A stretch of DNA of 7,987 bases. Origin: Octopus sinensis. Taxonomy: Eukaryota. The DNA lies in contig NW_021828588.1 in the NCBI RefSeq assembly GCF_006345805.1, positions 1 through 7,987 of the forward strand. The letters run 5' to 3'. The translations under genes and the position numbers were made by a program. The notes beneath the pieces are model-generated. The model was not told the origin of the DNA, ran no database searches, and worked only from the letters and a program-made list of their open reading frames with translations. Below are positions 2,505-7,987 of this stretch, piece by piece. Numbering within the stretch: position 1 is the first letter of the stretch; each line of letters begins with the position of its first letter.

Positions 2505-2752
2505 TAGACATCTGTGCATAATTTTTTATAATATAAATGTAAACAGATGTGACTGTGTGTGTACCGTTGGCGATTTTCTTCCCTCTGTTTTCCCTTCTCT
2601 GGATCTTTCCTTCTCCTATGTTTCCGATGAAGGGCTCCGCTCGAAACGTTAAACCCTTCTTCTTCCCTTCTTTCCTGAGCGTCCAATAATTCTATATTTG
2701 TACCACGTCCTCGCGTTGTTGTGTTTTTTTGTGCTGTCTTTTTGGATTAACT
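2505..2752 (+). mobile_element. Probable Penelope-like (pLTR-type) repeat fragment carrying a hammerhead motif; boundaries approximate
   Basis: Contains a minimal hammerhead motif (2620-2654) in a pyrimidine-rich context and ends at ggattaac directly against a (TA)n array. Minimal hammerheads are established features of Penelope-like element terminal repeats. The family assignment is inference. Confidence 0.5.
2620..2654 (+). ncRNA. Minimal type I hammerhead ribozyme motif (U4C core variant)
   Basis: GTTT-CCGATGA-A-GGGC-tcc-GCTC-GAAA-CG-TT-AAAC. Stem I is GTTT/AAAC, stem II is GGGC/GCTC (one G-U), and palindromic ACGT replaces stem III. The triplet is GUU with predicted cleavage at 2650/2651. 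Confidence 0.7.
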
Positions 2753-3341: not shown

Positions 3342-3412
3342 ACACACACACACACACAGAGTCATAGATTAATGTGTGTGTGTGTGTGTGTATTTGTATG
3401 TGTGCATATGTG
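3342..3412. repeat. (CA)n and (TG)n microsatellites
   Basis: (CA)n at about 3342-3358 and (TG)n at about 3373-3391, followed by degenerate TG. Confidence 0.85.
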
Positions 3413-3420
3413 TGGAAAGA

Positions 3421-3567
3421 TACATTATTTACATTTGACGGAAATTTGTCCTCATCTTGTTTGTTGTTAACACAACGTTTCGGCTAATATACCCTCCAGC
3501 CTTTATCAGGTGTCTTGGGGAAATTTCGAACTTGGGTTCTCATTTCTATGGTATTTTTCGATGTTTA

Positions 3568-3601
<34 letters not shown>

Positions 3602-3674
3602 TACTCAGGTCACTGCCTAGAATCGATCTCGGAATCTTGGGGTTAGTAGCCCGCGCTCTTAACCACTATGCCCG
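3421..3674 (-). mobile_element. Left arm of palindrome: tRNA-headed, hammerhead-bearing SINE-like element
   Basis: Reverse complement of 3675-3946, about 90% identical outside the microsatellite by manual alignment. It lacks 7 nt (TGGCGTA) near the A box, has a degraded B box (GAGATCGATTCT), and has an (ATT)n tract at about 3566-3604. Confidence 0.85.
3469..3514 (-). ncRNA. Minimal type I hammerhead motif (G8A lesion)
   Basis: The minus strand reads GACAC-CTGATAA-A-GGCTG-gagggtatat-TAGCC-GAAA-CG-TT-GTGTT, with stem I GACAC/GTGTT and stem II GGCTG/TAGCC. Confidence 0.65.
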
Positions 3675-3682
3675 CGGGCATA

Positions 3683-3737
3683 TGGCGTAGTGGTTAAGAG
3701 CGCGGGTTACTAACCCCAAGATTCCGAGTTCGATTCC
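3683..3737 (+). promoter_or_regulatory. Type 2 RNA polymerase III internal promoter (A box and B box)
   Basis: A box TGGCGTAGTGG (3683-3693) fits TRGCNNAGYGG. B box GAGTTCGATTCC (3726-3737) fits GTTCRANNC. Spacing is tRNA-like. The first downstream T4 run is at 4055-4058. Confidence 0.75.
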
Positions 3738-3852
3738 TAGCAGTGACCTGAACAATAATAATAACAACAACAACAACAACAACAATAATAATAATAATAA
3801 TAACATCGAAAAATATCTTGGGAATGAGAACTCAGGTTCGAAATTTCCCCAA

Positions 3853-3898
3853 GACACCGCATGAAGGCTGGAGGGTATATCAGCCGAAACATTGTGTT
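3853..3898 (+). ncRNA. Minimal type I hammerhead motif (degenerate core)
   Basis: GACAC-CGCATGA-A-GGCTG-gagggtatat-CAGCC-GAAA-CA-TT-GTGTT. Stem II is a perfect 5-bp helix. The core lesions differ from those in the left arm. Confidence 0.55.
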
Positions 3899-4060
3899 AA
3901 CAACAAACAAGATGAGGGGAAATATCCGTCAAATGTAAATAATGTACATAATTCCTCATCTCTTAAATATTTAAGTGTGAAAAGATGCAGAAATAATGAA
4001 ACATGCAAACCGATACATACTCAGATGCGTTATATAACATGGCGTACACGAAACTTTTAG

Positions 4061-4563: not shown

Positions 4564-4795
4564 TACTCTTTACTCTTTTACTCTTTTACTTGTTTCAGTC
4601 ATTTGACTGCGGCCATGCTGGAGCACCGCCTTTAGTCGAGCAAATCGACCCCGGGACTTATTCTTTGTAAGCCCAGTACTTATTCTATCGGTTGCTTTTG
4701 CCGAACCGCTAAGTAACGGGGACGTAAACACACCAGCATCGGTTGTTAAGCAATGCTAGGGGGACAAACACAGACACACAAACATATACACACAC
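4564..4795 (-). mobile_element. SINE family A, copy 2 (3' half only; tRNA head missing)
   Basis: Matches 6347-6578 from the (ACTCTTTT)n tail to the internal CA/TA microsatellite, then stops. Confidence 0.9.
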
Positions 4796-4805
4796 TAGGC
4801 TTACA

Positions 4806-4873
4806 AAGTACTAGGCTTACAAAGAATAAGCCCTGGGATCGATTTGCTCGACTAAAGGCGGTGCTCCAGCATG
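4806..4873 (+). mobile_element. Inverted 68-bp fragment of SINE family A
   Basis: Reverse complement of 4614-4681 with 64/68 identity. Confidence 0.9.
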
Positions 4874-4934: not shown

Positions 4935-5400
4935 GTATGTTGTACTTATTGTCGACGATTGCTTCCAAGACATGTGCGTCTCAACTGGAAAAGCGACATA
5001 GCAAGGAGAAACATTCCGAAATATAACAATATCTGTTTCAACACACGACTTCACATAAAAAATCTTGCACAACAAATATACAAACGTACATTAAAAAAAA
5101 AATTATTTGTTAATATCTAATTTAATAAATGATTTCTACATATTGTCACATACATTTTGATTGATTTTTCACTTCAGTATCGCTTTGTAAATGTTCTGTT
5201 TTTTAAAATTTTTTTTAACAATTTTCTGATACTAAAATATGCTAGCAGAGACCCTTGTTAGTCGAGTGAATTGGCTAAATTTTGTAGTTTGTTCTCTTCA
5301 TTTATTAAAACAGGTAGAGATTGAATAGGTAGGTATAACATCTAATATTTTCCCGTTTTTTAAAGTGAAACGTATCTGCTTGAATATATTTGGCGGTTTA

Positions 5401-5826
5401 AGGCGGCGAGCTGGCAGACACGTTAGCGCGCCGGGCGGAATGCTTAGCGGTATTTCGTCTGTCGTTACGTTCTGAGTTCAAATTCCGCCGAGGTCGACTT
5501 TGCCTTTCATCCTTTCGGGGTCAATAAATAAAAGTACCAGTTTCGCACTGGGGTCGATGTAATCGACTTAATACCTATGTCTGTTCTTGTTTGTCCCCTC
5601 TGTGTTTAGCCCCTTGTGGGTAATAAAGAAATAGAAAGAAATAGATATTTCGTCTGTCGTTACGTTCTGAGTTCAAATTCCGCCGAGGTCGACTTTGCCT
5701 TTCATCCTTTCGGGGTCGATAAATAAAAGTACCAGTTTCGCACTGGGGTCGATGTAATCGACTTAATCCCTTTGTATGTCCTTGGTTGTCCTCTCTGTGT
5801 TTAGCCCTTGTGGGCAATAAAGAAAT
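5401..5826 (+). mobile_element. tRNA-derived SINE family B: full unit (5401-5634) plus 5'-truncated tandem unit (5646-5826), inside one 12-bp TSD
   Basis: Head GGCGGCGAGCTGGCAGA and B box GAGTTCAAATTCC (5474-5486). Central GTCGACTTTGCCTTTCATCCTTTCGGGGTC domain and tail AAAGAAATA. Direct repeat ATATATTTGGCG at 5384-5395 and 5827-5838. Homologous to 7452-7681. Confidence 0.9.
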
Positions 5827-5840
5827 ATATATTTGGCGCT

Positions 5841-6256: not shown

Positions 6257-6897
6257 GGCCTATATTTCATACCTGATTTGGGCCTATTGCCTATTAAAAT
6301 AGGCCTATATTTTATACCTGGTCTTGAACTATTGCCTATTGAAATAACTCTTTTACTCTTTTTACTCTTTTACTTGTTTCAGTCATTTGACTGCGGCCAT
6401 GCTGGAGCACCGCCTTTAGTCGAGCAACTCGACCCCGGGACTTATTCTTTGTAAGCCCAGTACTTATTCTATCGGTCTCTTTTTGCCGAACCGCTAAGTG
6501 ACGGGGACGTAAACACACCAGCATCGGTTGTCAAGCAATGCTAGGGGGACAAACACAGACACACAAACATACACACATATATATACATATACATATATAC
6601 GACAGGCTTCTTTCAGTTTCCGTCTACCAAATCCACTCACAAGGCATTGGTCGGCCCGGGGCTATAGCAGAAGACACTTGCCCAAGGTGCCACGCAGTGG
6701 GACTGAACCCAGAACCATGTGGTTGGTTAGCAAGTTACTTACCACACAGCCATACATGATCTGGGCCTATTGCCTATTAAAATAGGGCTATATTTTATAC
6801 CTGGTCTTGAACTATTGCCTATTAAAATAGGCCTTTTTACCAAAGAAAATGAGGTCTATATTTCACATCTAGCCTAGATCCATTGCCTCTTGAAACA
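6257..6897. repeat. 45-bp minisatellite interrupted by a SINE
   Basis: Units at 6257-6301, 6302-6346, 6751-6784 (partial), 6785-6829 and 6853-6897 (degenerate). Consensus is approximately GGCCTATATTTYATACCTGRTYTKGRMCTATTGCCTATTAAAATA. Confidence 0.85.
6347..6752 (-). mobile_element. SINE family A, copy 3 (near full length)
   Basis: Minus strand: A-box-like TGGCTGTGTGG (6752-6742), B-box-like GGTTCAGTCCC (6709-6699), CORE-like ACCTTGGGCAAGT (6688-6676), internal microsatellite, and three AAAAGAGT tail units. Confidence 0.92.
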
Positions 6898-6991: not shown

Positions 6992-7220
6992 AGAGGTCTT
7001 GAGAAAGAGGGCTTTGCTGGCTATTTGAAACATCAGCGTCTGAAAAGATTCTGAAAGTCTAGATATGGTAGCAGCAGGATTTGACTGGCCTGCGGTGGTC
7101 ACCCGATTCTGCCCACTGATGTGTCTCAACAGAACGAAATCACGTGATGTGGGGATTCTGGTACCCATGACAGAGAAATTCCGTCTGCTATTATCTATGT
7201 GTGTGCATTTATGCTCGGGC
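6992..7220 (+). pseudogene. Possible decayed L1/Tx1-like ORF2 endonuclease remnant
   Basis: Peptide fragments occur in the expected order across frames: RGL..., LDMVA, KSRDVGILV (compare KSRGVAILI-type motifs of L1-clade APE endonucleases) and FRLL...IYA. It is frameshifted and too short between motifs, so the call is weak. Confidence 0.3.
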
Positions 7221-7353: not shown

Positions 7354-7804
7354 AATTTCAGATTTTTGACACAAGGCCAGCAATTTTGGGTGAGGGTTAG
7401 GATTAGACGATTACATCGAACCCATTACTCGGCTGGTACTTATTTTATTAAAGGCAGCGAGCTGGCAGAAACGTTAGCATGCCGGGCGAAATGCGTAGCC
7501 GTATTTCGTCTGCTTATGTTCTGAGTTCAAATTCCGCCGAGGTCGACTTTGCCCTTCATCCTTTCGGGGTCGATTAAATAAGTACCAGTTGCGCACTGGA
7601 GTCGATATAATCGACTTAATCCGTTTGTCTGTCCTTGTTTCTCCTCTCTGTGTTTAGCCCCTTGTGGGCAGAAAAGAAATAGGTACTTATTTTATCAACC
7701 CCAAAAGGATAAAAGGCAAAGTCGACCACGGTGCAATCTGAACTCAGAACGTGAATTACGGACGAAATGCTATAAAGCATTTTGCCCGGCATGCTAACGA
7801 TTCT
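7354..7804 (-). mobile_element. Older, diverged family B-related SINE split by a nested younger copy (pieces at about 7354-7448 and 7696-7804)
   Basis: Removing 7449-7695 restores ...gattacatcgaaccc...ctggtacttattttat|caaccccaaaaggataaaaggcaaagtcgacc...gaactcagaacgt...gcccggcatgctaacg, which is collinear with the reverse complement of family B. Confidence 0.85.
7452..7681 (+). mobile_element. SINE family B, full-length younger copy with 14-bp TSD
   Basis: Homologous to 5401-5634 and flanked by GGTACTTATTTTAT at 7435-7448 and 7682-7695. Confidence 0.93.
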
Positions 7805-7816
7805 TTTCTGTTATGG

Positions 7817-7987
7817 GCATAAGGACTGAAGTTTTGGAGGAAGGGGCCAGTCGATTGCATTGAGCCCGGTGTTTCACTGGTACTTATTTAATCGACCCCG
7901 AAAGGATGAAAGGCAAAGTCGACCTCGGCGGAATTTGAACTCAGAACGTAACGGCAGACGAAATACGGCTACGCATTTCGCCCAGCC
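7817..7987 (-). mobile_element. SINE family B-related copy, reaching the right window edge
   Basis: 7876-7983 is the reverse complement of 7484-7589 with two substitutions and a 2-nt indel. 7817-7875 resembles the 3' end type of the older copy at about 7368-7434. Confidence 0.9.

Follow-up and report, generated by a model that had tools for sequence, protein, structure and literature searches.

A head-to-head pair of short octopus repeats with Pol III-type heads and Penelope-like ends, likely placed by one insertion

How did two copies of a short repeat come to lie in opposite orientation in the genome of Octopus sinensis, meeting exactly at their 5' ends with no spacer between them? Two independent insertions, a fold-back during one insertion, copying of a ready-made dimer, an assembly error and priming from both strands of one target site would each leave different traces at the ends, the centre and among the relatives of the pair. 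These traces were analysed within a stretch of 7,987 nucleotides, called the window below.

Structure of the inverted pair

The outer parts of the two arms, at 3421-3565 (minus strand) and 3802-3946 (plus strand), aligned in inverted orientation without a gap and were identical at 131 of 145 positions. The heads were identical at 65 of 71 positions, so that the whole pair has 196 of 216 aligned bases in common and differs by 20 substitutions. An earlier note on this DNA had described mirrored arms of about 90% identity with differing simple-repeat tracts around a perfect 16-bp centre, and all three features were confirmed, the centre at 3667-3682 with its axis at 3674/3675. Each arm consists of a head with Pol III A and B boxes, an (AAT)n tract and a 3' module similar to the one in Penelope-like elements (PLEs), in this order. 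In the left arm (minus strand) the head occupies 3605-3674 and the tract 3565-3600 (TRF period 3, 12 copies); in the right arm (plus strand) a tRNA-like head at 3675-3750 is followed by an (AAT/AAC)n tract at 3751-3803, and the two tracts are unlike each other by TRF and by sequence. Both 3' modules, those at 3421-3565 and 3802-3946, match translated relatives. The monomer is non-coding and about 270-300 nt in size, and its reading frames are short and broken up by simple repeats. The arms are truly inverted, but the mirror image is not kept beside the centre: 7 nt of the right head at 3681-3687 (equivalently 3683-3689), which sit between two similar 6-mers, are missing from the left head near its 5' end, and perfect symmetry therefore stops at 16 bp, 8 bp on each side.

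These differences bear on whether the pair is real. PLE inverted structures are reported to trouble short-read assembly (PMC8557442), but an assembly or fold-back read artefact is hardly credible here, given the number of substitutions, the unlike tracts, the 7-nt indel and a target-site duplication (TSD) that encloses both arms. The arm divergence had already been held against an artefact, and the indel and the TSD agree with that argument.

The boxes were compared with A and B box consensus sequences that we take to be the standard ones. In the right head both boxes are exact (A box 3683-3693, B box 3728-3737), and this is the only A and B box pair at tRNA spacing in the window; none of 200 shuffles had one. 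The left head has one mismatch in its A box and two in its B box. Of the divergent Pol III heads proposed earlier, the right one is thus intact and the left one degenerate, and two working promoters at the present day are unlikely because the left boxes have decayed. A Pol III transcript started at the right head would extend outward as far as the first T4, at 4055, and would yield no hairpin. Neither Rfam nor ARAGORN called a tRNA in the head, and a cloverleaf was absent from its predicted fold. The one tRNA match was weak, to a phage tRNA (E=2); the head may resemble tRNA-Arg.

A minimal type I hammerhead motif was detected in each 3' module, at 3469-3514 (minus strand) by a descriptor scan and at 3853-3898 (plus strand) by a relaxed scan. 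No dinucleotide shuffle out of 3000 passed the scan for the left motif, even when two core changes were tolerated, and 0 of 5000 shuffles passed that for the right one. The layout in each arm is a 5-bp stem I, the core, one bulged base, a 6-bp stem II, GAAA and a 4-nt palindromic stem III, which fits the metazoan PLE ribozyme consensus given in the supplement of PMC4209133. A single core substitution (3504) was found in the left motif, with a predicted cut after 3474, and the right motif has two core substitutions (3859 and 3860) and one in stem III (3891), with a predicted cut after 3893. The substitutions are complementary: where the hammerhead of one arm is changed, that of the other is intact. 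Stem II and an outer stem of the right hammerhead form in the predicted fold. Rfam missed the motifs of both arms, and no intact hammerhead core was found anywhere in the window. To judge from the sequence, both are decayed minimal motifs of PLE type; as both cores are broken, this single inserted copy is probably an inert, dead fossil.

Two further hammerhead-like sequences were seen elsewhere in the window. An unrelated minimal motif at 2620-2654 (plus strand), with one core change, 4-bp stems I and II and a palindromic stem III, is probably the end of another PLE-derived repeat. A weak Rfam Hammerhead_1 match at 7110-7155 (plus strand; 19.3 bits, E 0.97), with a longer palindromic stem III, is a possible third PLE-type ribozyme remnant.

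The window holds several other repeats. Positions 1-473 are a 19-bp tandem satellite of about 25 copies with 78% matches. An interspersed repeat is present in three copies that are 90-96% alike (870-1134, 4565-4794 and 6347-6617), and the middle copy is immediately followed by an inverted fragment of the same type (4806-4873), where a 16-bp duplication lies at 4794-4824. Each copy of another repeat (1242-1426 and 6569-6752, 90% alike) comes after a copy of the 870-type repeat. A SINE-like family occupies 5397-5827, 7448-7682, 7676-7804 and 7849-7986; it includes a tandem duplication of 195 bp, and several of its copies near the end of the window are inverted.

Relatives, tail and target-site duplication

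Relatives were sought by comparing a translation of the right arm (3803-3985) with proteins, and 53 were found at E<=1e-3. Four more came from a profile search of longer proteins; with one chance match (P0026, 6,813 aa) dropped, 56 were left. Near-duplicate cluster members are not among the 56, and an antisense match of P0038 (24% identity) was disregarded. The relatives are spurious translations of repeat copies: 53 of the 56 are without a Pfam family, and no reverse transcriptase (RT) or GIY-YIG domain was found in any of them. With frames that are short and interrupted and no such domain among its relatives, the element was rejected as an autonomous PLE. The named relatives are all from Octopus (O. 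bimaculoides P0001, P0020 and P0059; O. sinensis P0056). Two word-index protein searches with the minus-sense frame gave 2 and 11 candidates and no match. No match to a 25-mer of the element was found in prokaryotic genomes or to the element in phage and plasmid collections, and eight prokaryotic matches to an 18-mer were set aside as chance, none extending past 32 bases.

A close and a more distant sister family were separated by a crude motif rule, which misfiles about four proteins. In P0035 the 3' part of the head, a simple-repeat tract and the 3' module lie within one copy, and the window is thus not alone in having this anatomy. The sister family (P0002, P0003, P0008, P0045 and others) has the hammerhead-and-tail module in common and a different upstream part, is often tandem in units of about 43 residues, and could represent the partner PLE's pLTR or a further derivative.

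An inverted piece running directly into a forward copy was found in 5 of the 56 relatives (P0003, P0005, P0013, P0016 and P0051, the last counted because it resembles the inverted parts of P0003 and P0005), and 10 of the 56 have copies in tandem. The tandem cases are all from the sister family, as are four of the five inverted ones. The junctions of the five are truncated and vary in position, within or just upstream of the 3' module. The head was included in only 2 of 60 proteins. The RefSeq model P0020, the sole relative that covers the 5' end, matches in frame across the axis at 7 of 9 residues, and the chance of its two residues beyond the axis is about 7e-4. A further 5'-to-5' junction with the register of the window copy is suggested by this single case. 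The host-gene parts of P0020, P0056 and P0059 had no match to the window, and orthology of the P0020 locus with the window locus is unlikely. All three of these Octopus gene models, a dystrobrevin, an uncharacterised 368-aa protein and a WD40 protein, start with element-derived residues, which is exonisation or annotation error.

The recurrence of the junction in the one relative that could show it is what would be expected if the palindromic dimer were itself a master element, copied as a unit. We consider this improbable. In the five other inverted pairs the junctions are different and truncated, a Pol III transcript begun at the right head would run away from the left arm, and a recurring junction is equally expected wherever two full-length cDNAs meet.

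The right end of the element had been drawn at 3946. The translation of the next 24 nt (3947-3970, plus strand, end uncertain within 3970-3976) matches P0001 at 8/8, P0013 at 7/8, P0022 at 6/8 and P0014 at 5/8 residues, and this part is, on the strength of these translated matches, family sequence and the counterpart of the PLE one-sided tail. The boundary at 3946 was thus set too short. The tail was seen at 5/8 or better in 4 of 27 close relatives, and six of the 27 (P0004, P0009, P0011, P0023, P0038 and P0040) diverge right past the short end point; the remainder break off, are spliced, have an intermediate form or were put in the wrong family by the motif rule. The end points and junctions of the relatives are seen indirectly, through translations obtained with a query that included the tail, and frameshifts could mimic short ends, so the counts show that there are two end points and not how frequent each is. 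Two more residues are common to the carriers, so that the tail of the family would measure about 30 nt, against 24 nt in the window copy. Tail positions 3954-3961 pair with 3910-3917 of the body (z -2.38; 5/200 shuffles). The left arm ends at the short end point and the right arm carries the tail.

Beyond the tail, the sequence 3972-3986 repeats 3407-3421 in direct orientation with 13 of 15 matches (11 of 12 in the core, 3410-3421 versus 3975-3986); the last base of the left copy is shared with the end of the left arm. When the left flank was compared with 15,944 positions on the two strands of the window, the right copy was its best match apart from itself. Within a box defined by the end point of the relatives, 15 of 3000 shuffles reached its score; within a wider box, 6 of 400 shuffles and 0 of 60 other places did. 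The earlier note had seen no TSD, and it escaped notice because the right boundary had been drawn short of the tail: at 3946 none was found (best score -8). Nor was a copy found at the centre, where the best match was 7/12.

One TSD pair round the whole unit makes it likely that one event placed both arms. Two independent SINE insertions, or a MITE-like DNA transposon that duplicated TA, are by comparison very improbable. The arms do differ by about 9%, and the inverted region has TA at both its ends (3421-3422/3945-3946); however, the single TSD encloses both arms with no copy between them, and the sequence past 3946 is element and not target DNA. A MITE in particular was rejected since the terminal inverted repeats are not directly flanked by target DNA: the element continues, and the TSD lies further out.

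Origin and age of the pair

The single integration event and the link to Penelope-like elements proposed earlier are both supported, on more grounds than the note had, by the one TSD pair, the one-sided tail and the PLE-type hammerheads. Inverted partial copies, cited in the same note as known for such insertions, are indeed a published, regular feature of them (PMC3846280, PMC8557442). A PLE-type single insertion is very probable. Against it count the imperfect TSD, longer than 8-10 bp, and a tail of 24 nt that is shorter than the published 30-40. No autonomous PLE with the shared 3' module was found among the protein matches, and five short motifs of the element had no match in the PLE supplement of PMC8557442.

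As to how one insertion gave two arms, we consider it likely that a PLE enzyme inserted the repeat with cDNA primed from both cut target strands. The PLE GIY-YIG endonuclease would cut the two strands 12-15 nt apart, adjoining a (TG)n tract. Each free 3' end would then prime reverse transcription on repeat RNA, one at the tail end and the other at an internal start about 24-30 nt upstream; on this proposal, the tail is found on one arm only because the two primed starts differ. Both cDNAs would reach the 5' end of the RNA and become linked at that point, through a template jump or through annealing at the self-complementary centre, and hence no spacer would be left. The template may have been one RNA copied twice, or two RNAs. 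The arms would have been near-identical at birth and would then have decayed independently, and the 7-nt loss on the left may be a slip between the two similar 6-mers, during or after insertion. Mobilisation by a PLE and the order of these steps are inferred.

The main competitor is also a single PLE-driven insertion, in which the second arm arose by fold-back or self-priming, the cDNA (or an antisense RNA) turning at its palindromic 5' end. Self-priming has been put forward for PLE head-to-head junctions with palindromes (PMC3846280), the perfect 16-mer centre suits it, the 7-nt asymmetry could mark a turn through the 6-bp near-repeat, and it explains the TSD, the hammerheads and the family identity equally well. 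By itself, however, it gives no reason for the second arm to stop at the short end point of the family instead of at the tail end or a random position, and a turn with zero loop would be sterically unlikely. Purified PLE protein, moreover, extends both strands (PMC11167929). The fold-back or template switch favoured earlier thus keeps some probability and is in our view unlikely. Priming from both strands is the better fit because the two outer ends match the two end points of the family, and because purified PLE protein cleaves as well as extends the two target strands, with reverse transcription starting at two sites between which the genomic tail lies (PMC11167929, with PAc of Anolis, predicted to be a dimer). 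We hold this model with moderate confidence; joining of two cDNAs is not reported for any PLE in the parts of the literature consulted. For the formation of inverted copies and tails, self-priming is proposed in PMC3846280, and the later steps are left unvalidated in PMC11167929.

For the long RNA hairpin expected on read-through, the predicted fold has 231 bp paired, including helices of 45 and 40 bp. Weak Rfam miRNA matches were found in the element and are due to the hairpin. A cruciform at the present day is unlikely because perfect symmetry covers only 16 bp round a GC-rich centre.

The substitutions between the arms correspond to a Jukes-Cantor distance of 0.099 +/- 0.023, and the divergence of the TSD copies (2/15) is close to that of the arms. 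Each arm has three private amino-acid changes relative to the named relatives (3:3). With about 0.05 per arm, and on a published scale in which 0.065 corresponds to 18 My (PMC13282606), the insertion would be, very roughly, 14 My old.

Comparison with known systems

PLE insertions have been described in which the 5' copy is inverted, one end has a tail of 30-40 bp, the TSDs measure 8-10 bp and the junction has palindromes (PMC3846280, PMC8557442), the short TSDs being reported for rotifer PLEs such as Pen2a_Av of Adineta vaga (PMC3846280). The octopus locus resembles the inverted-pLTR insertions in its head-to-head 5' copy, the extension at one end, the TSD round the unit and the palindrome at the junction, as well as in the minimal hammerhead, the adjoining simple repeats and the tandem copies among its relatives. 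Since this geometry is published as a regular feature of PLE insertions, the head-to-head arrangement is less strange than it seemed. In contrast to such insertions, the octopus element has no ORF, its arms are short whole monomers with Pol III A and B boxes and not pLTRs, the junction lies at the 5' ends of both copies, and TSD (12-15 versus 8-10 bp) and tail (24 versus 30-40) differ in length.

Non-autonomous PLE derivatives are already known, and so are Pol III SINE-like elements with hammerheads, namely Sm-alpha and Sj-alpha; pairs of hammerheads on opposite strands, 100-700 bp apart, have been reported in Schistosoma (PMC4209133). By description, Sm-alpha is similarly a short non-coding retroposon in which a type I hammerhead comes after a tRNA-related Pol III promoter. 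Unlike the octopus element, it is described as tandem repeats freed by an active ribozyme, and the accounts of it drawn on here assign it no PLE partner, one-sided tail or inverted-pair insertion. Animal non-LTR retrozymes are likewise non-autonomous, carry a type I hammerhead and are proposed to be PLE derivatives moved in trans (bioRxiv 10.64898/2026.07.22.740005). They form tandem arrays with at least two complete hammerheads, whereas the octopus locus is an inverted pair in which both cores are broken, and assignment to the retrozymes was rejected for this reason; in the main text of that preprint, a tRNA or Pol III head has 0 occurrences.

The A and B boxes at tRNA spacing, the short non-coding interspersed copies and the TSD are those of a tRNA-derived SINE, and the hammerhead near the 3' end, the tail at one end and the inverted and tandem copies are those of a PLE-mobilised element. 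Ohshima and Okada reportedly described the tRNA-derived octopus SINEs OK, OR1 and OR2 in 1994. The present element is like these in belonging to the genus Octopus, by its named relatives, and in having a tRNA-like head with A and B boxes. OR1 or OR2 has been listed as a CORE-SINE (PMC4824008, PMC4758252). Compared by description, the octopus element differs from CORE-SINEs, which have a CORE domain of about 60 bp following the head, in that only the simple repeat (AAT/AAC)n lies between its head and 3' module. In the literature searched, no paper was found on a SINE that joins a tRNA-type head to a PLE end and inserts with PLE geometry; the family may be recorded in Repbase, Dfam, Ohshima and Okada 1994, Lunse et al. 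2017, supplement file 1 of PMC4209133 or the bioRxiv supplements.

We tentatively suggest that the locus represents an abundant class of octopus SINEs, with a tRNA-type Pol III head and a Penelope pLTR end, that are moved by PLEs and whose full-length copies are routinely exact 5'-to-5' pairs since both target strands prime cDNA, one from each of the two PLE start sites. SINEs are normally described as parasites of LINEs; if the suggestion is true, this rule would be widened to PLEs, with a possible reading of schistosome Sm-alpha in the same terms. Thousands of short, datable copies would then be a natural record settling the origin of PLE inverted repeats and tails: because the element is short and has a fixed 5' end, the rival PLE models can be counted in existing genomes. 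Such pairs would also give long double-stranded RNA on read-through, as predicted here.

Among known systems, the element works like a PLE-mobilised SINE and not like an autonomous PLE, a retrozyme or a MITE. Its palindrome is expected PLE behaviour, and what is of interest is that a Pol III head is combined with a PLE end and that the junction is exactly 5' to 5'.
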